Assembly: GCA_036567845.1 (NCBI GenBank)
Contig: DATCTT010000027.1
Span: forward strand, 11 to 64,010
Direction: 5' to 3'
Length of the DNA: 64,000 nt
Source of the DNA: Candidatus Ozemobacteraceae bacterium
GTDB taxonomy: Bacteria; Muiribacteriota; Ozemobacteria; Ozemobacterales; Ozemobacteraceae
Both the position numbers and the translations under genes were made by a program. Every line of letters begins with the position of its first letter. Position 1 is the first letter of the stretch. Under the pieces are notes generated by a model. That model ran no database searches, was not told the DNA's origin, and worked only from the letters and a program-made list of their open reading frames with translations. Positions 4,894 to 56,650 of the stretch are shown here, one piece after another.

Positions 4894-7146
4894 TCAAATC
4901 ATCGATTTCAGGAAGGTGAGCTTCGAAAGCGTCTTCATCAGCCACATCTTCTTGCCGGGCAGATCGTCCGGACCGAAGACCGCCTTCGCGTTCCCCTTGT
5001 CATCCAGCTCGATCCGATATTCCTTCGACACCGCGATGTCACTCATGATGCCGGACCGGAGCTCCGCGGCGAAGGCACGGGACTTGATCGCGGCGACGAC
5101 TTCCGAGTTTACTTCCTCGCTCAGGTAGTCCATGTTGTAGGTGCCGATAACCGCGACCTTGCCGTCGAACACAAAGGTTTTCGCATGGAGCTTGCGCTGC
5201 GCGGCGAAGGTGAAGATGCGGGCGGTCGGGATTTCCTTGAGAATGCGTTTCCAGTCCGCATAGAACATCGCCTGGGTCGCGAGACTGTCGGTCGAGGCGG
5301 GGCTGTTGGTGTGGATGATGATCCGCACGCCGCGTGCGCTGGCGCGCTTGAGGGCTGCGTTCGCCCGTTCCGTCAGGACGACATAGGGGTTCTGGATCAC
5401 GATCTCGGAGCGGGCACCGTCCATGAACCGGATCAGCTGGTCGGTGATGTCGTTGCGGGGGCCGGCGAGCGAGTGCTTGTCGATGATCTTGACCGGTGCC
5501 TCGTGCGCTCCGGCGAAGGATTCGAAGCCGCTGAAACCCTTCAGATGCTTGTAATTGGCGAGTTCTGTTTGATACTCGGTGAGCGCCTTGGTCCGCCGTT
5601 TGTCCAGGTTCTGGGCCGTGGTCAGCGCGTTACCGCCGATGTGGGCGGACATGGCGTCGAAGGCGAGCTCCAGCTCCTTGCTCATCACGTCGATGTTGCC
5701 CCACAGATCCTTCGTGATGTTCGTCTGCTTGCGCTCGGTGAACTCCTCGTCGAACGCCAGGTCGAGCTGCTTCGCGATGGCGGCGCTGCGGACGACCACG
5801 TCACAGTCACGATACGCCGTCGGCATGTCTTCCGGATCGACGAAGTAGTGGCTCGAGATGTTGCGGCCGCCCACGACCGAATACTCCCCGTCGACAACGA
5901 GAATCTTGTCGTGGTTGCTGGCCATCAGCTTGCGCGGGTCGAGCACGAACGTCACGAGATTCTCATGAACTGGGTTGAACACCTTGACTTCGACGTTGGG
6001 ATAGCTGACCAGTTCCTGGACGAAATCCTGGCCCATCAGCTTGCGCGTGAAGCCCTTCGTGCCGCGGGCATCCATCATGAACCGGATCTTGAGCCCTTCG
6101 CGGGCCTTGCGCAGCAGCGCGCCCTGGAGAGCCAGGCCGAAGATATCCTTGTCGACGATGAAATACTGGATGTCGATCGAGGTGCGGGCTTCGTTGACCA
6201 GCTTCCAGCGGGTGTACCAGGCATCCGAGTTCTGATACAGCAGCCGGACGTCAGCCGCATCGTCACTCCCGCCCGAGGCCGGCCGGAACTGGTCGAAGCT
6301 GATGTCGGGCGCTGGCAGGAAACGGGCTGCAAGGTTCTCATAGGCGATCATGAACGTCTTGTAGTCGTCCTGTATGTTCGTGAACGACCAGACGTTCTTG
6401 AAATACGAGCCGAACCGGAAAATCTTGACCGGGAAGGCGAGCCACGAGGTGTCGCGATACTTGCCATACTGCGCGGCCACGACGGAATACTTGGTCGAAA
6501 GGGTGGTCTTCCACTGGTCGAACTGTTTGTTCGCGGCGTAATACTTGAGCCGGGCCTGCGCTTCGCCGGCCCAGGCGGGGTTGCGGGTGTCGGAAGCGAG
6601 TTGCTGCAGGATCTCAGTGGCCTTGGCTGTGTCGCCCTTGAGCTGTTCATAGGCTTTGGCCAGCTCATACTTCAACTGTGCCGCATGGGCCGAGGCTGGA
6701 TTGGCCTGAAGATACTGCTCGATACGGGAAATGGCCGCATCGGGGGATTTCCGGTTCTGGTCGCTCCAGAGCGCCTGGAGCATACTGCGGATCTCGGTGG
6801 GAAGCTGGGGGGCGACCTTCGCTGAGGAGGTCGAGCCCGTGGAGGAGGTCGCGGACTCGTCGGTGCCGGAAGGCGTCGCCGTTTCCTGATCGATATCCGA
6901 AGCTGCCTGCGCTTCGTCCGTCGACTGGTTCAACGTTGCCTCGTAGGCGCCCTTGGCCTGGGTGTAGGCAGCGAGCGCCTTCTTCACCTCGGTCTCGGAA
7001 AGTCCCTTCGAGACGGCGTCCTGATACGCCTTGTAGGTGGAGATATACTGGTCGTAAACGGCCCGTGTGTCGGTCTGGCCGAACGCGGTTGCCGATGCCA
7101 GCATGAGGAACAGGGACATCCGGACCCAGGTCGACGGAGTGCGCTT
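4894..7146 (-). CDS. Secreted phospholipase D-family protein (two HKD motifs) with an N-terminal TPR-like/low-complexity region
   Basis: RBS GGGAGG 7 nt upstream of ATG (7146). Signal peptide MKRTPSTWVRMSLFLMLASATAFGQ. HKD motifs NHDKILVVDGEYSVVGGRNI and KLHAKTFVFDGKVAVIGTYNMD. Confidence 0.85.
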   Translation of the reverse strand, partial: KRTPSTWVRMSLFLMLASATAFGQTDTRAVYDQYISTYKAYQDAVSKGLSETEVKKALAAYTQAKGAYEATLNQSTDEAQAASDIDQETATPSGTDESATSSTGSTSSAKVAPQLPTEIRSMLQALWSDQNRKSPDAAISRIEQYLQANPASAHAAQLKYELAKAYEQLKGDTAKATEILQQLASDTRNPAWAGEAQARLKYYAANKQFDQWKTTLSTKYSVVAAQYGKYRDTSWLAFPVKIFRFGSYFKNVWSFTNIQDDYKTFMIAYENLAARFLPAPDISFDQFRPASGGSDDAADVRLLYQNSDAWYTRWKLVNEARTSIDIQYFIVDKDIFGLALQGALLRKAREGLKIRFMMDARGTKGFTRKLMGQDFVQELVSYPNVEVKVFNPVHENLVTFVLDPRKLMASNHDKILVVDGEYSVVGGRNISSHYFVDPEDMPTAYRDCDVVVRSAAIAKQLDLAFDEEFTERKQTNITKDLWGNIDVMSKELELAFDAMSAHIGGNALTTAQNLDKRRTKALTEYQTELANYKHLKGFSGFESFAGAHEAPVKIIDKHSLAGPRNDITDQLIRFMDGARSEIVIQNPYVVLTERANAALKRASARGVRIIIHTNSPASTDSLATQAMFYADWKRILKEIPTARIFTFAAQRKLHAKTFVFDGKVAVIGTYNMDYLSEEVNSEVVAAIKSRAFAAELRSGIMSDIAVSKEYRIELDDKGNAKAVFGPDDLPGKKMWLMKTLSKLTFLKSMI

Positions 7147-7354
7147 CATACGGTACCTCCCAGGCTCTTCAAAGGATAATTTGTCCAATTATACGAGCGA
7201 ACCCGGGGGGGGCGTAAAGGGTACGCAGTTCCCCGCGAAGAATCTCACGAGAGATTTGAGAGGTTCTCGCAAGGGGGAAGGGGGCGACACGGGAGACCTC
7301 TGTACGTATTCTGGATGAGAATTTCCTGCGGCAATTGGCAGAAACGAGGAGTTT

Positions 7355-8062: not shown

Positions 8063-10675
<2,613 letters not shown>

Positions 10676-10793
10676 TGATATCTAACCTCCGGCGTCCGCC
10701 GCGGGTGAAAAAAGATGTTCCCCGCTGTAACTAACAAAAATCGTGCCACAGGCAAAAGTGTCTCTGGAAGACCGCTGTCACCGGTCGAACACG

Positions 10794-10805
10794 TGCGACG
10801 TCGCA
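10794..10805. promoter_or_regulatory. Perfect 12-bp palindrome TGCGACGTCGCA in the clpB/aclB divergent intergenic region (candidate regulator site)
   Basis: The sequence equals its own reverse complement and sits in the 336-bp divergent region. No CIRCE or clear sigma32 motif was seen. Confidence 0.25.
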
Positions 10806-10931
10806 TCAGACAGCCTCCCGCGCGACGTTTCCGTCGCATCCAGATGCCCCCAAGTGCCGGGCGAAACACGATCGCCCGCCTCTCCTCGGCTCCCGCCTGT
10901 TTTCTCGCCAGCCGGCTCGCATATCGCCGCT

Positions 10932-10962
10932 TGACGGTTGAGGGAAGGTACTATATACCCAT
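10932..10962 (+). promoter_or_regulatory. Sigma70-like promoter candidate for aclB
   Basis: cTTGACG, a 15-16 nt spacer, then TATATA; about 45 nt upstream of the aclB ATG. Confidence 0.3.
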
Positions 10963-11011
10963 AGAACATGCGGCCCCAGAGAGCCGTATGACAGGGAAAG
11001 GAGCAGGATTC

Positions 11012-12286
11012 ATGGCACAACGGGGTATCCGTGAGTATCATGGCAAGAAGATGCTGGCCCGCCACCTGGGCGAGTATCTGAACGGCGGGATCGGCTACGA
11101 CGGCAAGATCGTGCTCGTTGACGAGAAAACCGACTGGAAACAGCTGCGCACGGAGAATCCGTGGCTCGGCTCGATGCCTCTGGTCGCGAAGCCCGATCAG
11201 CTGTTCGGCAAGCGCGGAAAGCATGGTCTCGTGCTCGTCAACAAGAATTTCGACGAGACCAAGGCCTGGATCATCGAGCGCATGGGCAAGACCACCAAGG
11301 TCGGCGAGACGACCGGCACGCTCACGCATTTCCTCATCGAGCCCTGCATTCCGCACGAAGCCGAATATTATGTCGCGATCAAATCGACCGCCGAGGGGGA
11401 TGTGATCTACTTCTCGCTTGAAGGCGGCATCAGCGTCGAGGAAAACTGGGACAAGGTCATCCAGATCCAGGTGCCGGTTCTCAAGGGCATCGACGGGATC
11501 GACATTGAGAAGGTCCTGCCCGCGCAGCTCGGCAAGAACAAGAAGCTCGTTGCCCGGTTCATCATCGGGCTGTACAAGTATTTCGCGGCGCTCCATTTCA
11601 CCTACCTCGAGATCAACCCGTTCGCCATCGCCGGCGAATCGATCATTCCGCTCGACATGGTCGCCAAGCTCGACGATACGGCTGAGTTCTGCGCGGCGAA
11701 GTTCTGGGGGGAGGACATCGAGTTCCCGGCCGCGTTCGGCCGCAACTTCACACCGGAAGAGCAGAAAGTGCGCGAGCTCGACGCGATGTCGGGTGCTTCC
11801 CTCAAGCTGACCCTGCTCAATCCCGATGGCCTCGTTTGGAACATGGTCGCGGGCGGCGGTGCCTCGGTCATTTTTGCCGACACGGTGTGCGATCTGGGCT
11901 TTGCGAAGGAACTGGCATTTTACGGGGAGTATTCCGGCGACCCCAGTACCCAGCTCACCTATGAGTATGCCAAGACCGTCATGGATCTGATGACCCGCAA
12001 GCCGGACCCGCAGGGGCGGCCGAAATGCCTGATCATTGGCGGCGGCATCGCCAACTTCACCGACGTTGCGAAGACCTTCACCGGAATCATCATGGCGATG
12101 AAGGAATACGCAAAGAAGCTTCAGTCGGTGGGTGCCCGGATCTACGTTCGGCGCGGCGGCCCGAATTACCACGAGGGCCTCGCCAAGATCAAGGCGGCGG
12201 CGACCGAGCTCGGTCTGCCGATCGAAGTGCACGGGCCGGACTACCACATGACCCGTGTCGTGCGCGACGCCCTCCAGACGGCGTGA
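11012..12286 (+). CDS. aclB: ATP-citrate lyase beta subunit (ATP-grasp, SucC-like)
   Basis: RBS AAAGGAG then ATG at 11012. ATP-grasp fold sharing the architecture of the succinyl-CoA synthetase beta subunit, about 425 aa. It immediately precedes an AclA-type gene. Confidence 0.85.
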   Translation: MAQRGIREYHGKKMLARHLGEYLNGGIGYDGKIVLVDEKTDWKQLRTENPWLGSMPLVAKPDQLFGKRGKHGLVLVNKNFDETKAWIIERMGKTTKVGETTGTLTHFLIEPCIPHEAEYYVAIKSTAEGDVIYFSLEGGISVEENWDKVIQIQVPVLKGIDGIDIEKVLPAQLGKNKKLVARFIIGLYKYFAALHFTYLEINPFAIAGESIIPLDMVAKLDDTAEFCAAKFWGEDIEFPAAFGRNFTPEEQKVRELDAMSGASLKLTLLNPDGLVWNMVAGGGASVIFADTVCDLGFAKELAFYGEYSGDPSTQLTYEYAKTVMDLMTRKPDPQGRPKCLIIGGGIANFTDVAKTFTGIIMAMKEYAKKLQSVGARIYVRRGGPNYHEGLAKIKAAATELGLPIEVHGPDYHMTRVVRDALQTA

Positions 12287-12311
12287 CTGCGGAAAGGAAC
12301 CAGAGAAGACC

Positions 12312-14156
12312 ATGAAACGACCGTCATATCTTCTGTTCGATAAAAACACCCGCGCGATCGTCTTCGGCATGCAGACGAACGCCGTCCAGCGCATGCTCGA
12401 TTTCGACTACTGCTGCAAGCGGGAAAAGCCCTCCGTCGCCGGCATCGTCGACCCGGGCCGCTCGGGCACCAGCAAATGCTTCTATGGCAAGAAGGAAATA
12501 TTCGTGCCGGTCTATCCCGACATCGCGACGGCCGTCGCGGCTCACCCCGATGTCGACGTGATGATCAACTTCGCCTCGTTCCGGTCGGCCTACGACACGA
12601 CGATGCAGGCACTTGACGCCGAGCAGATCCGCACGATCTGTGTCATCGCCGAGGGCGTTCCCGAACGTTTTTCGCGTCACATGCGCGCTGTCGCCCTCGA
12701 GCGCGGTAAGACGATCATCGGCCCGGCCACTGTCGGCGGCATCGCGGCCGGCGCCTTCAAGATCGGCAACACCGGCGGCACGATCGACAACATCTGCTCC
12801 TCCAAACTCCACCGGCCGGGCTCGGTCGGCTTTGTGAGCAAGTCCGGCGGCATGTCGAACGAGGCCTACAACATCATCGCCCGCAACAGCGACGGCCTGT
12901 TCGAAGGCATCGCCATTGGGGGGGACGCGTATGCCGGTTCGAATCTGCTCGAGCATCTGATGCGCTTCGAAGCCAATCCCGCGATCAAGATGCTTGTCTG
13001 TCTCGGTGAGGTTGGCGGCGAGGAGGAATGGCGCATCGTCGATGCTCTTCGGTCGGGCAAGATCAAGAAGCCTCTTGTCATGTGGGTCACCGGCACCTCG
13101 ATTAAATATATGCCGAAGGGTATACAATTCGGCCACGCCGGCGCGAAGGCTGACGCCAGCCGGGAGACGGCCGAGGCGAAGAACGACGCCCTGCGCGCCG
13201 CCGGAGCGATCGTGCCGACCTCGTTCGACGATTTCGACAAGGCAATCAGGGATACCTTCGACAAGCTCGTGGCGAAGGGCGTCCACAAGCCGATCCCCGA
13301 CGTCGAGCCGCCGGCGATTCCGATGATGTATAAGGAAGCCGCGGCCCGCAACCTCGTGCGCCGGCCGACCAACTTCACCTGCACGATCTCCGACGACTCG
13401 GGCGACGAGTTGATCTACGCGGGACACAAGATCAGCAAGGTGATCTCGGAAAACTACTCGCTCGGCGAGGTCATCGGCCTGCTCTGGTTCAAGGAACGGC
13501 TGCCCAAGTGGGCGGCGGGCTTCATGGAAAACGTCCTGAAGCTGTGCGCCGACCACGGCCCCTGCGTCTCGGGCGCCCATAACGCCATCGTGACGGCTCG
13601 TGCCGGTCGCGACCTGATGAGCGCCGTCGCCTCGGGCCTTCTGACGATCGGCCCCCGGTTCGGCGGTGCCGTCGCCGGTGCGGCCCTAGCGTTCAAGGCT
13701 GCGCGTGACGCCCAGATGACGCCGGAAGGCTTCGTCGACGACATGAAGAAGAAGAACGAGAAGATCCAGGGAATTGGGCATCTGATCAAGAGCCTCAAGA
13801 ATCCCGACATGCGCGTCGTTCTTCTGAAAAAGTTCGCCAAGGAGAACTTCCCCGCGACCCCACTGCTGGACTATGCCCTCGAGGTCGAGCAGATCACGAC
13901 GTCGAAGAAGGACACCCTGATCCTCAACGTCGACGGTTGCATCGGCGTTCTGTCGGTCGACATGATGTATGGCCTCGGCTGGGACGAGGAAAAGATCCAG
14001 GAAGTCGTCGACAGCGGCGGCCTCAACGGCCTCTTCCTGCTCGGCCGCACGATCGGCATGATCGGCCACTACATGGATCAGCGCCGACTCGAAGCCCCGC
14101 TCTACCGCCACCCCTGGGACGACGTTCTCTACGATCTCCCGAAACTCGAAGAGTGA
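12312..14156 (+). CDS. aclA: ATP-citrate lyase alpha subunit (CoA-binding, phospho-His, citrate-synthase-like C-terminus)
   Basis: ATG at 12312. GIQFGHAGA phospho-histidine loop, CoA-binding N-terminus, 614 aa. The aclB-aclA gene order matches Chlorobi/Nitrospira-type loci. Confidence 0.85.
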   Translation: MKRPSYLLFDKNTRAIVFGMQTNAVQRMLDFDYCCKREKPSVAGIVDPGRSGTSKCFYGKKEIFVPVYPDIATAVAAHPDVDVMINFASFRSAYDTTMQALDAEQIRTICVIAEGVPERFSRHMRAVALERGKTIIGPATVGGIAAGAFKIGNTGGTIDNICSSKLHRPGSVGFVSKSGGMSNEAYNIIARNSDGLFEGIAIGGDAYAGSNLLEHLMRFEANPAIKMLVCLGEVGGEEEWRIVDALRSGKIKKPLVMWVTGTSIKYMPKGIQFGHAGAKADASRETAEAKNDALRAAGAIVPTSFDDFDKAIRDTFDKLVAKGVHKPIPDVEPPAIPMMYKEAAARNLVRRPTNFTCTISDDSGDELIYAGHKISKVISENYSLGEVIGLLWFKERLPKWAAGFMENVLKLCADHGPCVSGAHNAIVTARAGRDLMSAVASGLLTIGPRFGGAVAGAALAFKAARDAQMTPEGFVDDMKKKNEKIQGIGHLIKSLKNPDMRVVLLKKFAKENFPATPLLDYALEVEQITTSKKDTLILNVDGCIGVLSVDMMYGLGWDEEKIQEVVDSGGLNGLFLLGRTIGMIGHYMDQRRLEAPLYRHPWDDVLYDLPKLEE

Positions 14157-14231: not shown

Positions 14232-14266
14232 TATAAAAAAAAAGCCCCGGGCATGAGCTCGGGGCC
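14232..14266 (-). terminator. Rho-independent terminator for the minus-strand lipoprotein gene (T9 tract on the minus strand)
   Basis: A9 (14235-14243) then gccccgggcatgagctcggggc. On the minus strand this is a GC hairpin followed by T9. Confidence 0.6.
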
Positions 14267-14277
14267 ATTGTGTTAGA

Positions 14278-17001
14278 TCATCTGATCGACGCTGGCGGCA
14301 AGACCGAGCCGGGTTGGGGCCAGACGGTGGAGGCATCCGAGAACTTCGTGAGGAACAGGCGGGTGCCGTCGGGGCTCAGGAGCCCTGAAACCGTTACGGT
14401 ATGGCCGGCCGATTCCCACATGTCGTGACCTCCGACAGGGTCCTGATAGCGGAATTTAGGGCTCTTCTCGAGGGTGGCTGGGTCGAAGGTGACGTAGGCG
14501 CTGTATCTCACCGTCTCTCTCGTCCAGAGGAGCTTGAAAGTCGTTGCGGGATCGGTCGACTTCGGATCGACGCTCAGGATACCGCTCAGGTCCGTGATCA
14601 GCGTTCCGGAGGCGGGCTCCTCGGGCGGAGTGAATGGAACCTCGGGATTGGGCCAAATGGTTGAGGAATCTTCGAAGGTGGTCATGAACAGGCGCTGGGC
14701 ACCGGTTTCGTCGGTGAACAGCTTGCCGGAAATCGTCACGGTGTGTCCATCGGATTCCCAGAGGTCACGACCGGACGTCGGATTCTGGAATCGGAAGGCG
14801 GGCACCTTGGTCAGCGCGTTCGGATCGAAGATGACGTAAGCGCTCTTCATGCCCGCCGCATCCCTCCAGGTGAACTTGAACATGTTCCGGGGATCCGGGG
14901 AACTGCGATCGAAACTCCAGAGACCGCTCTGATTGGCGATTGCCGCGCCTTCTGCCGGTTCCCCCGGGATCTCGATGCCGGGCGGAACGAAGCCGGTATC
15001 CGAGGCGGGCCGTATGGCGAACACCTTGACCACTGCCGGGCCGTAATCCGGAGCCGGTCGCTTCTCGATGATGAGGCCCTCCATGGTGACGGCCATGCCG
15101 AGCATGTTCTGCATGGCGTTCCTCACGGCTTCGGATTCGGGGAGGAATCTCGTGCGGATTCTCTGGGTGAGGCCGAACCAGAACTCACCAGCCGCATCAC
15201 GTTCGAGCGGGCCGCCCGTGAAGGTCATGGGCTCGAGCTCCGGGATCGTGACGACGTCGTCGGCATATCCCGTGATGCGGAACGTGGCGGGCATGCTGTT
15301 CATTACATCTGGCTTTGCTGTATAGTAGCCAATATATACGTGAGGGGTCGTTGTGGCCGTTACGGGCTGGCCGCCGACCAGGCTCCCATCGGCTACCATG
15401 GCGATATATCCGCTGAAAGAGGCCGGGCCTTCCGGAAAGCCTTCCGGGGGCTTGATATAGAGGTGACCGTTGCACTCCTCGATGATTCCCATGATCCGGC
15501 CGGGCAGATCGCCGGTGGGATCCTGGGGAATTTCGGCCGGTATATAGGTGAAACCCATCTCAGGGCCCTGCATCAGGAGCACGAACAGGGCGGCGGCGAG
15601 ATCCTTCGCGTTAGCTGAATTGGCGATGGCGGGAACGTTCGCCAGGATCTTGCCGATGATCAGATCGCGGATGGCGTCATGGTAGATCGTGAGCTGGTCG
15701 GGCGTCGGAGGGAGCGGGGACACCGTCTGCTTTCGCACCGAAGCCGCCAGGGTCAGCTCACCGAGACCGGTGTCGAAGCCCGAGCTGGTATTGATGCGCT
15801 GGGTTTCCCGAGGTGCGGGATACAGGCGGGTGATCAGGGGCGGAGTGCCTTCAAACAGGCCGAGATTCATGAAGGTGGTCTTGAAGGCGGCCTGGATCAG
15901 GCCGTGGACCGGATCGGCCTGGAACATCGCCCGGACGGCATCGGCGCTCGGAGCGGCCTTCAGAGCCGTCATGAGGCGCTCGAGGCTGTCGGAGATCAGC
16001 TGGTAATCGGCCATCGGCAACGCTGGCGGTGTCATGGTTGTCATAACCTTGAGAGCGGCGATGACGCCTTCCAGCTTGCCTGCCAGGGTCTGGGCTTCGA
16101 GATGCTGGGTGACCTCGGGGGCGTTGACGATGCCGGGCAGAGTCTCGCCGATCAGTTTGTCATCTGCATCCTGCAGCCCAAGGAGGACATCTGGTGGCAG
16201 GCCGAGCGAGCGGGCGCGCAGCCGGAGCTGGTCGCCGAACAGCTGCCAGCCTTCCGCCTCGCAGTAGAGGCCCTGGGCGATGCCTTCGCAGATCTCGCGC
16301 TGGAGGGAGAAAGCAAACTCGCGGAATTCGACAAACTTTGCGTCTTCGAGGCCGGCCTGGCGGAACATCTGGAGCTGGGCTTTCTCGCGGTTGACGAATG
16401 CTTGGGCGATCCTCGCCAGCTCGAGCTCCCCAAGAGTCGGGAGTTTTTCGATCGGAATGATGCTCAGGATCTCGCCCAGATTGACTTCGAACGTGGCATC
16501 GAAATCCTCGGCGAACCGAACCAGCTTCGCCTGGTAGATTGAGTTGGGATCGATGACGGGCGCCGAGGCAATCTTCCCTTCAAGGATCTCGGGCAGGACC
16601 CCTTCGAGGACCGTGCCGCCGAGAGTAGCGCGCAGGACGATGTTGCGCCGGCCGGTCGGAAGCCCTTCGATCCGGTAATACCCGGTGGCATCTGTCGTCG
16701 CCCGCTGGCCGAACGGGACGAACACGCCGCGATCATCATAATCACCGGCCTCGACCGTCATTCCAGCGGCCGGGGTGGAGACGGATTTCAGCAGGCTGCC
16801 CCGGATGCTCCGGGAAATGGCCGCGTTGCTGACAAAGCCTGTCGCAACGCCGTTTCCAGACGTGAGTCCCTCGTTCGTTCCGGGATTGTTCTGGCCGCCG
16901 GGGAGCAGATCATCGCCGCCTCCGCCGCCTCCACAACCCGTGACGAGGAGAGATGCGGCGACCACGCAAAAACAAAGCATACGAAAAAGCAAGGACTTCA
17001 T
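14278..17001 (-). CDS. Large lipoprotein (907 aa) with a carboxypeptidase-regulatory-like domain and two tandem ~100-aa C-terminal repeats; function unknown
   Basis: Lipobox LLVTGC followed by a poly-Gly linker. GYYRIEGLPTGRRNIVL has a CarbopepD_reg-like flavour. The C-terminal repeats are SGLWSFDRSSPDP...FRFQNPTSGRDLWESDGHTVTISG and SGILSVDPKSTDP...FRYQDPVGGHDMWESAGHTVTVSG. Confidence 0.8.
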   Translation of the reverse strand: MKSLLFRMLCFCVVAASLLVTGCGGGGGGDDLLPGGQNNPGTNEGLTSGNGVATGFVSNAAISRSIRGSLLKSVSTPAAGMTVEAGDYDDRGVFVPFGQRATTDATGYYRIEGLPTGRRNIVLRATLGGTVLEGVLPEILEGKIASAPVIDPNSIYQAKLVRFAEDFDATFEVNLGEILSIIPIEKLPTLGELELARIAQAFVNREKAQLQMFRQAGLEDAKFVEFREFAFSLQREICEGIAQGLYCEAEGWQLFGDQLRLRARSLGLPPDVLLGLQDADDKLIGETLPGIVNAPEVTQHLEAQTLAGKLEGVIAALKVMTTMTPPALPMADYQLISDSLERLMTALKAAPSADAVRAMFQADPVHGLIQAAFKTTFMNLGLFEGTPPLITRLYPAPRETQRINTSSGFDTGLGELTLAASVRKQTVSPLPPTPDQLTIYHDAIRDLIIGKILANVPAIANSANAKDLAAALFVLLMQGPEMGFTYIPAEIPQDPTGDLPGRIMGIIEECNGHLYIKPPEGFPEGPASFSGYIAMVADGSLVGGQPVTATTTPHVYIGYYTAKPDVMNSMPATFRITGYADDVVTIPELEPMTFTGGPLERDAAGEFWFGLTQRIRTRFLPESEAVRNAMQNMLGMAVTMEGLIIEKRPAPDYGPAVVKVFAIRPASDTGFVPPGIEIPGEPAEGAAIANQSGLWSFDRSSPDPRNMFKFTWRDAAGMKSAYVIFDPNALTKVPAFRFQNPTSGRDLWESDGHTVTISGKLFTDETGAQRLFMTTFEDSSTIWPNPEVPFTPPEEPASGTLITDLSGILSVDPKSTDPATTFKLLWTRETVRYSAYVTFDPATLEKSPKFRYQDPVGGHDMWESAGHTVTVSGLLSPDGTRLFLTKFSDASTVWPQPGSVLPPASIR

Positions 17002-17136: not shown

Positions 17137-18765
17137 TCATCTCGGGGGCATGACTTGCTGAACACGATCCGTGACATCGACGAGGACAGACCGGCCCGAT
17201 GCGAGCGGAGGAACAAAGTCGGAACCGGCGAGAAAGATGTTGCGATCCGGGAGGGGGGGGAGATCTTCACTGAGATATTCTGAACGGATCGACCGGAACA
17301 GATTGACCAAGGAGAGGTCCTGCCTCAACCGGCCATATCTTCGATTCTGGCAGTAAACGGCGATCAGATTCGCGAAGCGCTCCTTCAGATGCGAGGCATT
17401 CATGTCCCCATACCGGAAATAGCAGCCAGGGCCATGATCGGATGCGAGAATGATCACGCGAGGGCGGTTGGATGGGGAGACAAGAAGAGTGTTGACGAGG
17501 TCGCGGACGCGCTGTTGCAGCCATGCGAGCTGGTTCACATAAGCGCGTTTGTATTCTTCCTCGGTCCTGTTCCAGCGGATGTTGATGGCGTCGATATAGC
17601 TGAAACAATATAATGGCTCAATTTCTTGCCCCTGGGCGTCGAAAACGAATGGTGCATGCGGGGCAAAGAGATGAGCGAAGGCAAAGACCGGTGCCGAAGC
17701 GGAGGAGGCTTGCGGCATGGCATCGAATGCGAAGCGGATGCGATCCCTGTGGCCTTCATAGGGAAAGAATAGTTCGCGATAGCGGGGGGGAATGGACTTG
17801 GTAACGGCTGAAGGAAGAACGGACGCGAGAGCCGGCAGGATGGTACGGCCGATGATGGTGCCTGTGAATTCCCCTGTTTGAGGATACTGGTTGGTCTCGA
17901 AAACACCAGAAGGGGATACGTTTGTATAATAATATCCGCTTTTGTATATTTTAAGATGATATCCCCGGTGGGCGAATGCGGCCATTGTCGGATTTGTCGC
18001 CATCCTGGCAACGAAATCTTCCGGATACAGGGTTGGGGCAAGAAGATCGTCGATATATCGGCCTTCCAGCATCGAGAGAAAGCTTGCGAAGGTTGAAGGA
18101 TAATTTGCTGTGCTGCGGTCGGCTACGTAGAAGCCCCGGTCCCGAAGAAACCGGGTAAATGAGGATGCATTGAAGCCATAGAGGTCCCGAAGCACATCTT
18201 CGCGAGCATAGGCATCGAGAATGAGACAGTATATGTCGGGATCTACTGTCTCCGGGGCAGAGCGTGGTGCCGGCTGGGAGGCTGGAAGAACGTGGCCAGT
18301 CGAACGTGCTGGGCGGTTTGAGAAGACGTAGAGCTGTTCGGCGCCCGTCAGCAGAACGAAGATCAGGAGATAGACGTTCATGATTCGGAGCGGCCGGTCA
18401 AGTTTCATGCGTGTCCGTCGCAGCAGAATGGCGAATATCAGAAGAGATGTAGCGATGGTCAAAAGCATCAGGAGGTGACGGCCGTATGGGGACAGGTCTC
18501 TAGGCAACATCGGGACGATGAATTCGAATGCCGTGCCGTATCCGAAAAAGGCCGTCAGAACCAGCAGGGAAAACAGGCCTGCGTGTTGCCGGTCGGCCCA
18601 GAGGCGCTTTGAGAGGAGAACGAGAACGGTTGCCAAGCAGGCAAGACCTGCGACGACGGAGATCTCCCCGGTCTGGAGAAACAAGGTATTCTCAAAGAGA
18701 AGTCGGGTGTTCCAGATCAGGAAATACAGGAGCGAAGGGAGCTCAGGATTGCTCAGCATCGACAT
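17137..18765 (-). CDS. Membrane protein with an N-terminal polytopic domain and a C-terminal sulfatase/alkaline-phosphatase-superfamily domain (LTA-synthase/phosphoglycerol-transferase-like)
   Basis: About 5 TM helices N-terminally. Then DAYAREDV and ILASDHGPG motifs typical of the sulfatase fold. The start overlaps the stop of the upstream methyltransferase. Confidence 0.75.
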   Translation of the reverse strand: MSMLSNPELPSLLYFLIWNTRLLFENTLFLQTGEISVVAGLACLATVLVLLSKRLWADRQHAGLFSLLVLTAFFGYGTAFEFIVPMLPRDLSPYGRHLLMLLTIATSLLIFAILLRRTRMKLDRPLRIMNVYLLIFVLLTGAEQLYVFSNRPARSTGHVLPASQPAPRSAPETVDPDIYCLILDAYAREDVLRDLYGFNASSFTRFLRDRGFYVADRSTANYPSTFASFLSMLEGRYIDDLLAPTLYPEDFVARMATNPTMAAFAHRGYHLKIYKSGYYYTNVSPSGVFETNQYPQTGEFTGTIIGRTILPALASVLPSAVTKSIPPRYRELFFPYEGHRDRIRFAFDAMPQASSASAPVFAFAHLFAPHAPFVFDAQGQEIEPLYCFSYIDAINIRWNRTEEEYKRAYVNQLAWLQQRVRDLVNTLLVSPSNRPRVIILASDHGPGCYFRYGDMNASHLKERFANLIAVYCQNRRYGRLRQDLSLVNLFRSIRSEYLSEDLPPLPDRNIFLAGSDFVPPLASGRSVLVDVTDRVQQVMPPR

Positions 18766-20150
18766 TCCCGGGATTTCATCAGAAACAGTGTGCGTTTTGT
18801 GTCCCGCACGGGCATGGCGGCGAGGGTGTCAAACCTGCAGGCCATGCTGGCTTCGAACGCCGCCTGTGAATACCCGGTGAAGATATCTTTCCGGACGGCG
18901 AGGAGTCGCTGCACCTGGGAATCTTCGCGGGGGACGAACTCGATGATCAGGTGGCGTCCGAGACCGGCCAGGAAGGCGGCGACACGGTCGAAGGGCAGGT
19001 TGTTGCCGATGACGAGATGGTGGATGAGAGCGAGCGCCATGACGAGATCGACCGGGCCGCGATCCGCGAATGAAGCCCGTTCGGTATGGGCCCAGCCGAA
19101 GGCCGGGGTGGGGTTGGTCAGATCCAGCAGCAGAGGAAGAAGTCGGGTGTCACCGCGGGAGCGGACGTCCCGGTAATTACGCTCGACTGCCGCCGGATCG
19201 ATGTCCCAGGCCACGGTCAGGGCTCCCCGCTCGCTAGCGAGGCGGCTGAACACGCCGGTGTTCGCCCCGAGATCCCAGGCTGTCCCCGGGGAGACCCGGT
19301 CGATGAGGCCGGCGACCAGTTCGCGCTTTTCCGTGAAGCCGGTCTCTGAATAATTTGTATTTGTATAATATTCCGCCCACGTCGTTCCGGCGGGATGCCA
19401 GTCGAGAGCCTCGATGGCGCTCTGAAGACCGTCGACGATGCCGCGAACGGCCTGGGGATGAACCTTGCGGCCGGCGGCGGGGTGGGGGGTGTCCGAGGCA
19501 AGGCTCGACTGGGCTCGTGCGTGCAGGTGCAGATGCATCAGGAGCTGGAAGGAAAACCAGGTGCGCAGCGGGAGCAGGCGCGAGGCGAGGTCCAGCGGAA
19601 TACCGTCGAGATGGAGCTGAGAGAGGCGGCCCAGGCTGACATCGACGCGACTCATCAGCGCGAGGGGGGCGAGGAAGTGGCGGCAGAACTGCTGATAGGC
19701 GGGCCAGGGCTCGTCTGCCCGGGCTTTTTCGAAGGAAAGGGTGTCGAGAAGCACGATTCGGCCTTCGTGCAGCTGGAAATTGAAGGCCGAGGCGTCCTTG
19801 AGCCGCATCCCGTAATTCATCGCGAGCGACTGGAGAGCGAGCGCCGCCCGGGCCGCGTCCCGGAGCTGACTGAACGACCATTCACAGGGGTGGGAGATGA
19901 ACCGGACCGTCTCCGGCCGGATGACGCGGAAACAGCCCTCGGGATCAAGGGGTGGTTCGCCGGTCTCCTCGTGTCGGATCAGCAGGCCGTCTTCGATCAG
20001 ACGCGCATACAGGCCGGATCGCATGAAGTGTTCATAATCCTCCTGCCCGATTGCTTGTATCTGGCGATATAGAATGCCGTTCCGGGAAAAGACGAAGCCA
20101 GCCGGGTCTCGAAACGAGGCCCGATGCCGATCCTGGTGATTGACCGTCAT
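18753..20150 (-). CDS. Two-domain protein: unknown N-terminal domain plus a C-terminal class I SAM-dependent methyltransferase
   Basis: MTase motif I WDLGANTGVFSRLASERG and post-I VAWDID. N-terminal 250 aa are unassigned (FRDPAGFVFSRNGILYRQ). Confidence 0.75.
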   Translation of the reverse strand: MTVNHQDRHRASFRDPAGFVFSRNGILYRQIQAIGQEDYEHFMRSGLYARLIEDGLLIRHEETGEPPLDPEGCFRVIRPETVRFISHPCEWSFSQLRDAARAALALQSLAMNYGMRLKDASAFNFQLHEGRIVLLDTLSFEKARADEPWPAYQQFCRHFLAPLALMSRVDVSLGRLSQLHLDGIPLDLASRLLPLRTWFSFQLLMHLHLHARAQSSLASDTPHPAAGRKVHPQAVRGIVDGLQSAIEALDWHPAGTTWAEYYTNTNYSETGFTEKRELVAGLIDRVSPGTAWDLGANTGVFSRLASERGALTVAWDIDPAAVERNYRDVRSRGDTRLLPLLLDLTNPTPAFGWAHTERASFADRGPVDLVMALALIHHLVIGNNLPFDRVAAFLAGLGRHLIIEFVPREDSQVQRLLAVRKDIFTGYSQAAFEASMACRFDTLAAMPVRDTKRTLFLMKSRECRC

Positions 20151-20467
20151 TTCTTCGCGGAGGGGTGATCGTCGGGCTGTGGTGGTCTCTCGGTGCTGTC
20201 GGGCTTCTTCCTGCCCGTCAGGAAATCTTTAAATTGCTGCCAGTACAGTTTGAGGGCGTAGAGGCCTCCGAACAGCGTCGCCACGATGATCTGAAAGATG
20301 TAGCTTCCGGTGCCGGGATCGATATAGGCATCGGCCGGTGAAATGATCAGAAAAGAGAGGCCCAGCGCCAGCGGAATGCGGCTGGACAGGGCGGAAAGAG
20401 CGGTGTGCATGGATCCTCCTGAGGAACGGGCAGAATCGGTCGGGAACGCCGGCGAATGCCTGGTCAT
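20147..20467 (-). CDS. Small membrane protein (single TM); the real start may be the internal Met (about 20410)
   Basis: Hydrophobic LALGLSFLIISP and IFQIIVATLFGGLYALKLYW. ATGA overlaps on both flanks (20147-20150 and 20464-20467), suggesting translational coupling. Confidence 0.45.
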   Translation of the reverse strand: MTRHSPAFPTDSARSSGGSMHTALSALSSRIPLALGLSFLIISPADAYIDPGTGSYIFQIIVATLFGGLYALKLYWQQFKDFLTGRKKPDSTERPPQPDDHPSAKK

Positions 20468-21237
20468 CTCGGCTTTCTCGTGAGGCCGTGCTTGAAGAGG
20501 CGGTCGACCTCTTCGCCGAACCGGCCGTCGGCGAGGTGGATGACGAGATGGGGCAGGGGTTCGTGGCCGCCGTTGTAGAAGCGCTCGGCCTCGATCAGGA
20601 CAAGGTGGGCGGGCTGGCCCTCTTTCGGGATCACGAACCGGATGCGCTTCAAGCCGAAGTGGGCTGACTTGAAATGCTCGCAGGCCTCGTAAAACCGGTC
20701 GGCCGGGATGATCATGGCCAGCTTTGCCCCATAGGGCAGCAGATAGGCCGCCGACTCGATGAAGTCGGCCAGGGTGCCGTTCAGCTCGTGGCGCGCGGCG
20801 GCGCGGCTGGGCTTTTCCGGGATCTTCCCGCTTCCCTTCGGGTAGTAGGGGGGATTCATGACGACCAGGTCGAAGGATTCCGGCAACATGCGCGCCGGTA
20901 TTTCCCGGATATCGACATGCTCGAACTCCATGCCGATCAATCGGGGGTTGAGTTCGAGATTGCGCTTTGCAAGATGATGAAACTCTTCCTGCAGCTCCAT
21001 GCCGGTGATGGTCAGAGCGGGGTTTCGGTATTTCAGCATGAAGGCCAGAATGCCGCTGCCCGAGCCGAGGTCGGCAACCCGGGAAACGCTCGGGGAGAGC
21101 GGGGCAAACTCGGCCAGCAGAAGAGTGTCGATGGCAAACGCCGTGCCGTCGATCTTCTGGATCAGCTTCAGATCGGTGCCGACGACCTCGTCGAGCCGCT
21201 CGTCCGTGTCGAGGAAAACGCTCTGCATGCCAGGCAT
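20464..21237 (-). CDS. Methyltransferase-small-domain protein, TrmN6/YfiC-like (N6-adenine MTase fold with NPPY)
   Basis: VADLGSGSGILAFML (motif I), VVMNPPYY (motif IV, NPPY), about 257 aa. Confidence 0.75.
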   Translation of the reverse strand: MPGMQSVFLDTDERLDEVVGTDLKLIQKIDGTAFAIDTLLLAEFAPLSPSVSRVADLGSGSGILAFMLKYRNPALTITGMELQEEFHHLAKRNLELNPRLIGMEFEHVDIREIPARMLPESFDLVVMNPPYYPKGSGKIPEKPSRAAARHELNGTLADFIESAAYLLPYGAKLAMIIPADRFYEACEHFKSAHFGLKRIRFVIPKEGQPAHLVLIEAERFYNGGHEPLPHLVIHLADGRFGEEVDRLFKHGLTRKPR

Positions 21238-21291
21238 TCTACCCCGGATTCGGAAATGTTTACAGGGGGTGACGGCCTCGGGGACGGCAGA

Positions 21292-22404
21292 TCAGAAGTT
21301 GATCGCGAGGGAAAGCGAGTAGCGGCGGTCTTCCCGATCACCAGGACGGGGGCCGAGCTCTTCGGAATACGTCGCGAACTCGATGCGCGCTTCCCGAAAG
21401 GTCGCCGTAGCGCCGGCGCTCAGATAGCCCCCGCGAACGCCGCCCCGCAGGGTGAGCCAGGGCCGGGGAAGCGTTTCGAGGCCGAGCCGGAGCTTCGAGA
21501 AAAATGTGCCGTCGCTGGTGACATCGGCGAGATCGGCTGCCAGCAGCAGTTTGCGGGTGCGGCTCGAGGAGCCGGTGAGAGGCCGGACGGCGGTTCCGAT
21601 GTCGACGCGGCGCGGCAGGCGTCCGATGGAGGGATCGACCTCGGACTCGAACAGATTGCTCACCGAGAGGCCGATCGACTGGTTCCACGCGTTCGAAAGC
21701 CGGTACAGCACGCCGCCGTCGAGATCGAACGCCGCGCCCTTCCGGGCGTCGTCCCGCAGATCATCCTCGGAGAGCGTGGCGAAATCCCGTGCATCGTAGC
21801 TGCGGTCGATGCTGCGCCGCGAGAGAAACTTCATGCCCAGGCCCCAGTGGCCGGTCGCAGCATCGCCGAAGACGATACGGTTGCCGGGAATCGGGCGGGC
21901 GATGGCGCCGACCAGCACCGAGTCGATATCGCCTTTTGCCCGGATCGCGGGATTGGTCGGCCGCTCCACGCCGATCTGGGCGACCGTCTGATACAGAAAG
22001 CCGGCGCCGAAACCCGTTCCCCCGAGATAGTAGGCGAGATTCGAGGCGACGGTGCGGGCCTGCTGCCCCATGACGTCGCTCAGAAGGCGGTTGTTCGCGG
22101 CGCGGGCCTCGGGGGTGTCTGCATCTGACAGGCCATTGGTCTTGTTCTCCACGCGCCGGAGATCCTGATTGATCTCCCCCGTCGCGTCGAGAACGGCGTA
22201 CGATTTGTCGGTGATCTGGCCCAACCCGGCCGGATTCGAGAACAGGGCCTGCTGGTCATCGGCCACGGCCGTGAATGCCCCGCCCATGCCCTGCTGCCGC
22301 GGGGTTTCGTACACCAGCGGGTGGGCCTGCTTCGCCGGAAGGGGCGTGGCGGCGAGGATGGCCAGGGAGAGGGCTGCCAGTCCGGCGCGGATGATCGGTC
22401 GCAT
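21292..22404 (-). CDS. Outer-membrane beta-barrel protein (signal peptide, C-terminal Phe); PorV/FadL-like flavour but family unassigned
   Basis: Signal peptide MRPIIRAGLAALSLAILAATPLPA. Alternating beta-strand pattern, ending ...YSLSLAINF (terminal aromatic residue). N-terminal GMGGAFTAVADD motif. Confidence 0.7.
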   Translation of the reverse strand: MRPIIRAGLAALSLAILAATPLPAKQAHPLVYETPRQQGMGGAFTAVADDQQALFSNPAGLGQITDKSYAVLDATGEINQDLRRVENKTNGLSDADTPEARAANNRLLSDVMGQQARTVASNLAYYLGGTGFGAGFLYQTVAQIGVERPTNPAIRAKGDIDSVLVGAIARPIPGNRIVFGDAATGHWGLGMKFLSRRSIDRSYDARDFATLSEDDLRDDARKGAAFDLDGGVLYRLSNAWNQSIGLSVSNLFESEVDPSIGRLPRRVDIGTAVRPLTGSSSRTRKLLLAADLADVTSDGTFFSKLRLGLETLPRPWLTLRGGVRGGYLSAGATATFREARIEFATYSEELGPRPGDREDRRYSLSLAINF

Positions 22405-22406
22405 CG

Positions 22407-23258
22407 TCAGTTCGTCCCGTCGATCTCGGTCAGGAGCGCGGAAAAACTGGCCGCATGCACATCGTGGAAGGGGTGGACGGCTTCGAGCCGGTCGGCGAGA
22501 TCCCCGACGGCCGTGATGGTTGCCCTGTTCGAGGCACTGAAACTGCCGGTGAGCCGGGCGCCGTTGACGGGGGAGAGGAAGGTCCAGGCCTCGCCCCGCC
22601 CGTCGAATCCATACACGAGATCGCTGAACGCCTGTTCCAGCGACAGGCCCGAGGTCGCCGCCCCGCCGATGAAGGCGGCATACAACTCGGGCCAGGTCGC
22701 GGTTTTCGCGTCGTTCGTGGTGAACGTGATCTGGTCGTAGATGTCGAGCCGGCCATTCTTGTTCGTGTCATACTTCTCGAGCAGCCGCTTCGCGGCGATC
22801 AGGGGCGGTATCAGCCCCCGGGTGAGCCGGTCGGTGCGGGATGGCGCCGGCACCGACTGCATCATGCGCGAAGCCCGTTCGAGCCGGTCGATGTCCGAGA
22901 TGGTCGTTGCGCACTGGAACCACAGCGCCGCCCGGTCATACGGGCCAACCCCGTTTTGCATCGTGTCGAGCACGGACAGCACCCGGAAGCCGGCGAGGCC
23001 GGCTTCGGATTCGGCCAGTCCCTGGACTACGGGGCCGGTCGCATTTCCGCGATTCACGAGCTTCTGGAAGATCTCGCGCGCGCCGGTATAATCGCCGGAG
23101 CCAAGCGCCAGATAAGCTTCGTCGACGAGCTCGTCGTCGGTGCGCCCGCTCATGGCCGTGTCCATGCCGTCAAACAGATTGCATCCCGTCAGGCCGAGCG
23201 CGACCCAGAGCATCAGGAATGCCCGGAGGATGCGCGCCCCTCTACCCATGCTGAACAT
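22407..23258 (-). CDS. Lipoprotein of unknown function, translationally adjacent to the OMP gene
   Basis: MFSMGRGARILRAFLMLWVALGLTGC with lipobox LTGC. The stop at 22407 is 2 nt from the OMP start at 22404. Confidence 0.55.
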   Translation of the reverse strand: MFSMGRGARILRAFLMLWVALGLTGCNLFDGMDTAMSGRTDDELVDEAYLALGSGDYTGAREIFQKLVNRGNATGPVVQGLAESEAGLAGFRVLSVLDTMQNGVGPYDRAALWFQCATTISDIDRLERASRMMQSVPAPSRTDRLTRGLIPPLIAAKRLLEKYDTNKNGRLDIYDQITFTTNDAKTATWPELYAAFIGGAATSGLSLEQAFSDLVYGFDGRGEAWTFLSPVNGARLTGSFSASNRATITAVGDLADRLEAVHPFHDVHAASFSALLTEIDGTN

Positions 23259-23414: not shown

Positions 23415-24305
23415 ATGAACTCCCTGCTTCGCGCGTCCGGTGTTGCGTTGCTGTGTCTGCTTGCCGCCACCGTATCGGCCGGTCCGTTCGACCGTTCGAC
23501 CGTGCTTGTCGACGGGGCGGATACCGCCACCGCATCACTCATTCCGCCGAAGACCGTCGAGCAGCATGTGCGCGTGGCTTCCTATAACATCGCCCATGCC
23601 CGCGGCAACGAGGAAGGCAAGGACAAGAACGAGATCGCCCGCAAGGAGAATCTTGACGGGATCGCGGCGCTGCTGAAGCAGCACGAGATCGATATCGCGG
23701 GGCTGACCGAAATCTCCCAGGGCGATCTGCGGGCGAAGTTCCGCAATCAGCCGAAATACATCGCCGAACATGCCGGAAATCTCCATTACGTCTACGGGGA
23801 GAATGTCAGCCGGCTGCTCGGCCTGCTGGCGACCCAGGGAAATGCCGTTGTTTCACGGTTTCCGATTCTTTCTTCGAAGAACCACGTGTTGTACCGGACC
23901 GACCCCAAACATGAACAGCGGAGCTGCCTCGAGGCCATTCTCGATCTGGGAAACGGCCGCCGGCTCTGCGTGCTCGTCGCCCACCTGAGCCTGCTCGCGG
24001 AAGAGTCGGACAGGCAGGTCGAACAGCTCTGGAAGCTGGCGCTCGAGAGCAAGTATCCGGTCGTCCTGATGGGTGATTTCAACTCCCGCCCCGGAAGCAG
24101 CCGGATCAAATGGCTGGCCAGCCGCATGAAGGATACGACCGCCAACGTGAACACGACATTCCTGAACAAGCCCGATGTGAAGATCGATTATATTTTCAGC
24201 TATGGTTCGATCCGTGCCGGAACGGCGTTCGTCGACGGATTCGAGCAGGGTTACTCGGACCACGGCTGTCTCATCAACGAACTCTGGATCCGCTACCTCC
24301 GCTGA
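23415..24305 (+). CDS. Secreted endonuclease/exonuclease/phosphatase (EEP) family protein
   Basis: Signal peptide MNSLLRASGVALLCLLAATVSA. SYNIAHARG, LMGDFNS and the GYSDHG catalytic His region are typical of the EEP fold. Confidence 0.75.
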   Translation: MNSLLRASGVALLCLLAATVSAGPFDRSTVLVDGADTATASLIPPKTVEQHVRVASYNIAHARGNEEGKDKNEIARKENLDGIAALLKQHEIDIAGLTEISQGDLRAKFRNQPKYIAEHAGNLHYVYGENVSRLLGLLATQGNAVVSRFPILSSKNHVLYRTDPKHEQRSCLEAILDLGNGRRLCVLVAHLSLLAEESDRQVEQLWKLALESKYPVVLMGDFNSRPGSSRIKWLASRMKDTTANVNTTFLNKPDVKIDYIFSYGSIRAGTAFVDGFEQGYSDHGCLINELWIRYLR

Positions 24306-56371: not shown

Positions 56372-56487
56372 GGGGCCGCGCCACCTCTGAAAAAAATACC
56401 GCGCTCCCCGGGCCGGAGACGCCATGCGTCGTCTGTTCGGCACGATCTCCCGATCCGCGAGGAGTCGCGTGCTCATCCGACAGGTAT

Positions 56488-56650
56488 TCCGGCTCCCGGA
56501 TCATCCTCCCGCCGGCCCTTCCCACCCTTGCGGGTAGTGGCTTGCCGGCGTTTGTCCCCGATTACGGCGACGGGCTCGCGCAGGTGTTTCACCTGCTTCC
56601 CTGCTGGCCTGCGGTCAGGCCATGGCGATGAGGCCCTCTGGATACCACAA
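56488..56650 (-). ncRNA. Candidate cobalamin (B12) riboswitch in the leader of the TonB-dependent receptor gene
   Basis: The minus-strand leader reads ...GGGAAgcAGGTGAAAcACCTGcgcgagcccgtcgccGTAAtcgg...gcaaGCCACTacccgcaagGGTGGGAAGGccggcgggaggatgatCCGGGAGCCGGaa. This matches the conserved GGGAA/GGTGAAA/GTAA core and the CCACT...GGGAAG plus B12-box-like elements of E. coli btuB. Confidence 0.5.

Follow-up and report, generated by a model that had tools for sequence, protein, structure and literature searches.

The locus considered here raises the question of whether a compact string of genes on one strand forms a single functional unit. It lies in a 64,000-nucleotide stretch of contig DATCTT010000027.1 from a Candidatus Ozemobacteraceae bacterium (hereafter the window), where the minus-strand interval 23258-17137 had been predicted, from the letters alone, to be a seven-gene operon for modification of the cell envelope (the original prediction). 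In the open reading frame (ORF) list of the window the interval holds six same-strand ORFs, and a count of seven is reached by including the gene for a 907-aa lipoprotein further downstream. The features are as follows, in the order of the minus strand; OMP denotes outer membrane protein and AP fold the alkaline phosphatase fold.

22407-23258, minus strand: lipoprotein, 283 aa, with signal peptide and LTGC lipobox (module A)
21292-22404, minus strand: beta-barrel OMP, 370 aa, sub-threshold relative of PorV/PorQ, FadL and TraF_2 (module A)
20464-21237, minus strand: NPPY methyltransferase, 257 aa, of the TrmN6/COG4123 type (module A)
20147-20410, minus strand: small membrane protein, 87 aa, equivalent of Lani_1193; longest ORF start at 20467 (module B)
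18753-20150, minus strand: two-domain protein of the NoeA/Lani_1194 family, 465 aa, called MT2 (module B)
17137-18765, minus strand: AP-fold membrane protein, 540-542 aa, equivalent of NoeB/Lani_1195, called Sulf (module B)
14278-17001, minus strand: 907-aa lipoprotein, downstream of the string (context only)
14242-14260, minus strand: terminator-like site, hairpin and T run, beyond the 907-aa lipoprotein gene

Our answer, to which we assign a probability of roughly 0.6, is that the interval consists of two modules juxtaposed on one strand, of which the trio of module B would be an envelope-decoration device of the NoeA/NoeB type. Module A is an inherited Riflebacteria gene order without a demonstrable link to the trio. 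For the trio we observed family membership, domain make-up, conservation of catalytic residues, gene order and gene overlap.

The trio and its relatives

The protein by which the trio could be identified is MT2. It is 35% identical over its full length to NoeA of Sinorhizobium meliloti (BLASTP, E 6e-78), and residues 8-462 match 57 Sinorhizobium pSym records at 33-35% identity (tblastn, E ~1e-56). Its relatives comprise at least 8000 protein clusters at 90% identity, give matches in more than 595 GTDB species, and keep 50-58% identity across phyla; these include WOR-3, Chloroflexi, Planctomycetes, Acidobacteria, Clostridia, Proteobacteria and Bacteroidota, among others. The trio as such turns up in dozens of phyla.

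MT2 is laid out as a kinase-like N-terminal domain (approximately residues 10-250) followed by a class I S-adenosylmethionine (SAM) methyltransferase domain (approximately 270-460). In an alignment of 26 sequences from many phyla, R29, D119, N124 and D136 were invariant, with a D119-x4-N124 pattern. These residues correspond to those described for Lani_1194 of Legionella anisa (Sci Rep 2022), an atypical kinase-like protein in which R38 replaces the beta3 lysine and D, N and D are conserved (PMC9758233). According to the same source the kinase-like domain is fused to a class I methyltransferase in 94% of Lani_1194 homologues, and BCDIN3D was the top FFAS template for NoeA (PMC9758233). The AlphaFold2 (AF2) model of MT2, with a predicted local distance difference test (pLDDT) value of 84.9 and a predicted template modelling (pTM) score of 0.86, contains a long helix (93-112), a strand, the loop K-D-A-S-A-F-N, a hairpin (125-134), D136 and a further strand, an order of elements which we infer to be that of a kinase catalytic core. 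The 250-aa domain that the original prediction had left unassigned is therefore best described as an atypical kinase-like domain of the NoeA/Lani_1194 family, with a predicted activity. Its identity came through homology to NoeA and the published description of Lani_1194 and not through Pfam, where a scan at E<=10 gave nothing consistent; the domain has no Pfam or NCBIfam family. Against the Protein Data Bank (PDB) at E<=10 the N-domain gave one chance match to a uridylate kinase, and Foldseek against the PDB returned matches to the methyltransferase domain of MT2 only. Alignment by hhalign of the N-domain profile with single kinases (an approximate NPTII and the L065 Ser/Thr kinase) gave a probability below 1%, single-sequence targets of this kind being uninformative.

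Further features of MT2 were observed. H206-x-H208-x-H210 is invariant and lies in the helical part of the kinase-like domain; Q214 is invariant also, as is C156 elsewhere. The H-x-H-x-H motif, which could be a metal site, is left unexplained in the available portion of the 2022 paper (PMC9758233). The deposited annotation (P0001) gives the protein as 423 aa, starting 42 residues late (20025 instead of 20150), which removes the invariant SFRDP.GF motif together with R29. The 465-aa start is backed by homologues and by a Joint Genome Institute (JGI) gene call, and an exact-sequence look-up of the 465-aa protein found no match because the deposited annotation has the shorter start. With respect to better-known enzymes of similar composition, WbdD of E. 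coli O9a (PDB 4ax8/4azs; PMC3482155) has the order methyltransferase, kinase, coiled coil, whereas the window protein is kinase-like then methyltransferase and has no coiled coil; on these two grounds membership of the WbdD family was rejected. The kinase part of WbdD has no detectable sequence homology to MT2, and the partners differ, being WbdA and Wzm/Wzt for WbdD and a micro-protein and an AP-fold enzyme for MT2. A phosphocholine route (choline/ethanolamine kinase with phosphoethanolamine N-methyltransferase) was likewise considered and had nothing in its favour beyond generic methyltransferase fold matches.

Gene order was compared at 85 loci with a NoeA-like gene from other genomes. The gene for the small membrane protein (the micro-protein) lay directly upstream of the NoeA-like gene at 74 of the 85 by tblastn and at 8 more by motif search, and two of the three loci left have no upstream sequence. 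A Sulf homologue was found nearby, usually directly downstream, at 46-47 of approximately 85 loci. Published figures from 816 neighbourhoods are 65% for Lani_1193 homologues and 38% for Lani_1195 homologues (PMC9758233). Recurrent neighbours of the trio, each at no more than 10 loci, were GT2 and GT4 glycosyltransferases, an epimerase, a NeuB-like protein, a CMP-sugar synthetase and an ABC ATPase, which suggests a surface-glycan setting. Of the cassette originally proposed, the three distal genes (small membrane protein, two-domain methyltransferase and Sulf) are borne out as a conserved functional unit, with glycan genes adjoining it at part of the loci. At nine Anaerolineae loci (e.g. L011 9405-10487, L013 2498-3499 and L034 9402-10421) a membrane protein of ~335 aa replaces the AP-fold gene after the NoeA-like gene; it is conserved, has no family assigned and carries the pattern ...ATKVLMS.HAF.D...

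The micro-protein of the window consists of a signal-peptide-like segment ending in ADA, the sequence Y-I-D-P-G-T-G-S, one transmembrane (TM) helix and a basic tail. Its family motif is an invariant Y-x-D-P-G-[TS]-G-S, and Y48, D50, P51, G52, G54, S55 and Q59 are invariant. A hydrophobic stretch followed by small residues at -3 and -1 stands before the Tyr at 41 of 65 loci. At 14 of the 65, mostly in Chloroflexi, fewer than 15 residues precede it, so a signal peptide is impossible in those proteins. With or without a signal peptide, the mature protein would be ~45-60 aa long, its octapeptide lying outside, followed by a single TM helix and by an inner tail that is first basic and then acidic. 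The ATGA overlap of the micro-protein gene with the MT2 gene at 20147-20150 was confirmed and is conserved: over 65 loci the small-gene stop lies a median of 16 nt before the SFRDP codon of the NoeA-like gene, which means that the two genes overlap almost always. No Pfam or NCBIfam family covers the micro-protein, and a literature search for the DPGTGS/DPGSGS motif returned nothing relevant. In the planctomycete L001 a second micro-protein (YLDPGSGS, 11358-11693) and an AP-fold gene (12004-13572) lie ~2 kb downstream of the trio, without a second NoeA-like gene.

In the AF2 model of Sulf (pLDDT 88.5) the AP-fold domain comes after five N-terminal helices that span residues 9-149. A strongly basic loop (LRRTRMKLDRPLR) connects TM4 to TM5, and its charge would place the catalytic domain outside the cytoplasm, facing outward after TM5. 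Among 36 members of 20-49% identity, D184, H365, H370 and D443 were invariant and T225 and H444 were present in at least 90%, the roles as metal ligands or nucleophile being assigned by motif order and not by superposition. At the nucleophile position Sulf reads NYPSTFASF (consensus NY.xT..S), with Thr in the nucleophile place. PF00884 (Sulfatase) is barely passed (26.3 against 25 bits) and the C/S-x-P-x-R formylglycine motif is absent; because of this absence a true, formylglycine-dependent sulfatase was rejected. The top fold matches of Sulf include EptC, EptA, MCR-1, LtaS and PbgA. Sequence similarity to EptA/EptC/MCR-1, LtaS/LtaP, BcsG, GacH and PbgA/YejM is marginal (profile against PDB, E 0.0005-0.5), and the first metal ligand of Sulf is Asp whereas EptA/LtaS-type enzymes have Glu. 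The original description of Sulf as resembling a phospho-headgroup transferase agrees with the Thr at the nucleophile position, the lack of the sulfatase motif and the EptC/EptA/MCR-1/LtaS fold matches. In the 91%-identity relative of the window an extra AP-fold paralogue that the window lacks (P0124, 37% identical to Sulf; L086 11266-12867 and L090 10001-11602) stands between the NoeA-like gene and the Sulf orthologue, so that its string has seven genes and that of the window six.

Comparison of the trio with the symbiosis plasmid pSymA of S. meliloti, where the order is nodL, a 71-aa protein, noeA and noeB, showed likeness in the three proteins, their order, the motif and the overlap of the small gene with noeA. 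The gene of the 71-aa protein, whose sequence includes ...VPAHA-YLDPGTGS-MLVQ..., overlaps the start of noeA; the shared YLDPGTGS identifies the protein as the same micro-protein. NoeB shares with Sulf the N-terminal hydrophobic (TM) helices, the AP fold and the catalytic motifs, and is far more diverged from it than NoeA is from MT2. Against the profile of 36 Sulf relatives NoeB gave E 2e-15 in two segments, one with the Asp/Thr and one with FAH..PH / GDHG; hhalign gave a probability of 96.7% and pairwise BLASTP E 0.001. The settings differ. The S. meliloti genes lie behind nodL and under a nod box and have a host-range role, noeA and noeB being host-range nodulation genes (Ardourel et al. 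1995, cited in PMC9758233 and PMC9048898), whereas the trio of the window is chromosomal, in a Riflebacteria metagenome-assembled genome, among unrelated neighbours and with no NodL-like acetyltransferase. Lani_1193, Lani_1194 and Lani_1195 belong to the same family as the trio, as matched by their published description and not by sequence comparison. That survey of Legionella kinases frames the Lani genes as possible effectors, and predicts an AP fold for Lani_1195 and NoeB with YejM and EptA as best templates; in its available portion neither motif nor topology is given for Lani_1193 (PMC9758233). Novelty of the module could consequently not be maintained, since it is already represented by the small ORF-noeA-noeB group after nodL and by Lani_1193-1195. 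No paper on NoeA biochemistry later than 2022 was found.

Gene junctions and the independence of module A

The original prediction had inferred tight coupling from successive overlaps of 4-13 nt. Two of the five junctions bear this out, namely the ATGA at 20147 and the MT2/Sulf junction at 18753-18765, where the overlap amounts to 13 nt if Sulf starts at ATG 18765 and to 7 nt if it starts at ATG 18759 (the start annotated in P0121). The remaining three do not. The lipoprotein and OMP genes, said to overlap at 22404/22407, are separated by a 2-nt spacer (TGA-CG-ATG), and the gap between the OMP and NPPY methyltransferase genes is 54 nt. At the third junction an ATGA is indeed present at 20464-20467, but it is tied to the longest-ORF start of the small gene, which more probably starts at ATG 20410. 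A perfect AGGAGG precedes this ATG by 4 nt, a normal signal peptide results from it, gene calls in relatives likewise give 87 aa, and a 74%-identity relative shows no overlap between the NPPY methyltransferase and small genes. Given the ribosome-binding site at 20410 and the arrangement in this relative, the overlap probably arises only because the longest ORF was taken. Beyond Sulf there is a gap of 135 nt to the 907-aa lipoprotein gene. Downstream of the string the minus strand has a single intrinsic-terminator-like site, at 14260-14242, past that gene; its hairpin has 6 pairs as called on the minus strand, and the same palindrome has 9 pairs, 8 of them G-C, on the plus strand. No terminator-like site was seen between modules A and B or anywhere in the string before 14260-14242.

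With respect to the proteins of module A, the 283-aa lipoprotein has no Pfam family and shows a weak N-terminal BamD-like tetratricopeptide repeat match (TIGR03302, 22.5 bits against a cut-off of 81.4). Its orthologues across other Riflebacteria share 34-95% identity with it, and each is encoded directly upstream of the OMP gene. The N-terminal PorV-like motif of the OMP (GMGGAFTAVADD), as well as the MNPPYY and LTGC motifs reported with it, are present in the sequence, and a GMGGAFTAVADD-type motif is shared with PorV/PorQ of the type IX secretion system (T9SS) and with FadL/TraF_2 barrels. The match to PorV_fam (NF033709) scored 30.4 bits against a cut-off of 90 and was confined to residues 35-70. 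Of 40 OMP homologues, 39 matched PorV_fam (best E 2.6e-19), 27 TraF_2 and 11 Toluene_X, and 1139 representatives were found at E<=1e-3. The family relations that had been suggested for the OMP were therefore recovered, with all scores below their cut-offs. T9SS membership was rejected because of these scores; no T9SS genes were seen around the OMP gene, although no search aimed at T9SS components was made. A gingipain-type Peptidase_C25 with propeptide is encoded at 31474-33675 on the plus strand, which deserves mention beside a PorV-like OMP.

The NPPY methyltransferase matches PF05175 MTS (E 2e-11) and PDB 3lpm (E 1.5e-28, aligned over 5-239), followed by 7wm5/7wm6, and its Riflebacteria-wide orthologues are named TrmN6 by their sources. 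It shares the NPPY motif and full-length similarity with TrmN6/YfiC (COG4123). Differences are the score with NF047853 TrmN, 69.9 bits and far under the equivalog cut-off of 350 (model positions 30-232 of 244), and the lipoprotein-OMP pair found upstream of it in Riflebacteria. By sequence it is a full-length protein of the TrmN6/COG4123 type. Its steady linkage to the lipoprotein-OMP pair is odd for a supposed tRNA methyltransferase.

The independence of module A was apparent in three more distant Riflebacteria (L094 853-7753, L095 5059-7789 and L096 3322-7765), where orthologues of the lipoprotein (34-50% identity), the OMP (38-68%) and the methyltransferase (60-68%) follow one another as they do in the window. 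The OMP and methyltransferase genes are directly adjacent in L095; a MatE gene stands between them in L096, and four nonulosonic-acid genes (Epimerase_2, NeuB, PglD-like and CMP-transferase) in L094. In L096 the ATP-citrate lyase genes follow after one small opposite-strand gene beyond module A. In the window and in the 91%-identity relative, the trio and the large lipoprotein gene (in the relative also the AP-fold paralogue) lie between the methyltransferase and the ATP-citrate lyase genes. This is most simply read as an insertion of module B beside module A in this lineage.

That the six (or seven) genes are instead one envelope-modification operon, in which the OMP-lipoprotein pair exports or receives the product of the methyltransferases and the AP-fold enzyme, is what had been proposed at the outset, and we now regard it as unlikely. 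The genes do share a strand with short gaps and no terminator-like site until 14260-14242, and the NeuB and CMP-transferase insertions between the OMP and TrmN6-like genes hint that the site attracts envelope genes. However, homologues of the lipoprotein, OMP, NPPY methyltransferase, 907-aa protein or divergent endonuclease/exonuclease/phosphatase-family (EEP) gene were found at 0 of the 85 other NoeA-like loci, the three Riflebacteria genomes described above have no trio within 7 kb of module A, and the supposed overlap of the NPPY methyltransferase and small genes is probably not real. Furthermore, the trio occurs in Chloroflexi and Clostridia, which probably have no outer membrane (envelope type inferred from taxonomy). 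The synteny expected of the whole set was thus not seen. The NPPY enzyme in particular, assigned originally to a single envelope cassette, travels with the lipoprotein-OMP pair where no trio is present, and the notion of an envelope modification cassette can be kept for the trio and has to be dropped for the six-gene set.

Several points weigh against the two-module reading with the trio as a decoration device. The 91%-identity relative has all six genes together and in order, and at least the distal five (OMP, methyltransferase, small, NoeA-like and AP-fold genes) are kept in the 74%-identity relative, whose contig is short; both arrangements also count in favour of a single operon. Because the genes stay together in these relatives and no terminator-like site separates them, modules A and B may be co-transcribed in the lineage of the window. 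The N-domain of MT2 taken alone has no family match in sequence and profile searches, and in the published searches for remote homology the values were borderline (HHpred E 3-7, FFAS -9 to -10; PMC9758233). Approximately 45% of the loci are without an adjacent AP-fold gene, so that its coupling to NoeA is not obligatory.

Neighbouring features of the window

The 907-aa lipoprotein downstream of the string has an LVTGC lipobox, a poly-Gly linker, a single CarboxypepD_reg domain and, at the C-terminus, two repeats of ~100 aa that resemble each other (...FKFTWRDAAGMKSAYVIFDP... and ...FKLLWTRETVRYSAYVTFDP...). It is conserved in close relatives only and is 81% identical in L086. At the other end of the string, a secreted EEP-family protein is encoded at 23415-24305 on the plus strand, divergent from the lipoprotein gene across a 156-nt intergenic region; this gene is kept in the close relative. 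ATP-citrate lyase genes, judged by position and by the Pfam content of their L086 orthologues, occupy 10715-14156 on the plus strand and suggest a reductive tricarboxylic acid cycle. They adjoin genes for ClpB (8063-10675) and a PLD-domain protein (4894-7188). Elsewhere, a cobalamin riboswitch (76 bits; 56462-56644, minus strand) lies directly upstream of a TonB-dependent receptor gene (54494-56476, minus strand; Plug and barrel). Two overlapping genes for proteins of ~1000-1100 aa, each with a UvrD helicase and a PD-(D/E)XK nuclease, form an AddAB-like pair at 38192-44603 on the minus strand.

Proposed action of the trio and its significance

In the device that we propose, the NoeA-like protein would be cytoplasmic, and its kinase-like domain would phosphorylate, on the inner side of the membrane, a substrate that is most plausibly a lipid-linked glycan or a lipid head group. 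The WbdD/Bin3-like methyltransferase domain would then methylate the substrate, possibly on the new phosphate, giving a methyl phosphate as WbdD does. The micro-protein is predicted to span the membrane once with its N-terminus out and C-terminus in, so that the basic tail could dock the NoeA-like enzyme while the octapeptide is exposed outside. The outward-facing NoeB-like enzyme, with its metal set and Thr nucleophile, would add a phospho-substituent to an exported envelope polymer or lipid, or remove one from it, in chemistry that may be likened to that of EptA, LtaS, BcsG and GacH. Its fold and catalytic residues were observed; transfer or trimming is what we infer from them.

The micro-protein might alternatively be the substrate and not an adaptor, its exposed octapeptide being decorated on Ser/Thr by the AP-fold enzyme while the NoeA-like enzyme makes or primes the donor, or modifies the cytoplasmic tail of the micro-protein. 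AP-fold phospho-form transferases that modify proteins are established, as in the action of PptA on pilin and of EptC on FlgG. The octapeptide and Q59 are invariant across phyla while the remainder drifts, which suits a recognition or acceptor site; forms with and without a signal peptide reach the same N-terminus; and the planctomycete carries a micro-protein/AP-fold pair without its own NoeA-like gene. However, the micro-protein pairs with NoeA more often than with the AP-fold gene, and its overlap with the NoeA-like gene fits a stoichiometric partner equally well, and on balance we hold a substrate role to be improbable.

In a trans-membrane relay, where the micro-protein would do more than anchor its partner, the NoeA-like protein would make a methyl-phosphorylated (or otherwise phospho-methylated) lipid-linked donor at the inner face, and the NoeB-like phosphotransferase would use the extracytoplasmic N-terminus of the micro-protein as its covalent carrier or acceptor. 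DltX, which carries D-alanine in the Dlt pathway, offers a parallel. We consider such a relay distinctly unlikely; if true, it would add a pan-bacterial phospho-form decoration of envelope polymers that has so far gone unrecognised. It is also doubtful that the AP-fold protein lacks catalysis and serves as a sensor or scaffold in the manner of PbgA/YejM, or that it is simply a hydrolase, since invariant D184, H365, H370 and D443 and the nearly invariant T225 and H444 in 36 divergent members argue for retained catalysis, although hydrolase and transferase are indistinguishable from sequence.

Returning to the question with which we began, the gene string in the window illustrates that same-strand packing and ATGA overlaps do not by themselves define a functional unit at the level of an operon. 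Its trio is a Riflebacteria example of the NoeA/NoeB module, which has already been described, is biochemically unsolved and ranks with the more widespread of the conserved modules of bacteria without known chemistry. To earlier descriptions the present comparison adds the motif and probable topology of the micro-protein, the conserved overlap of its gene with NoeA, an outward AP-fold partner that looks catalytically intact, and a methyltransferase domain that is closest to phosphate-methylating enzymes.

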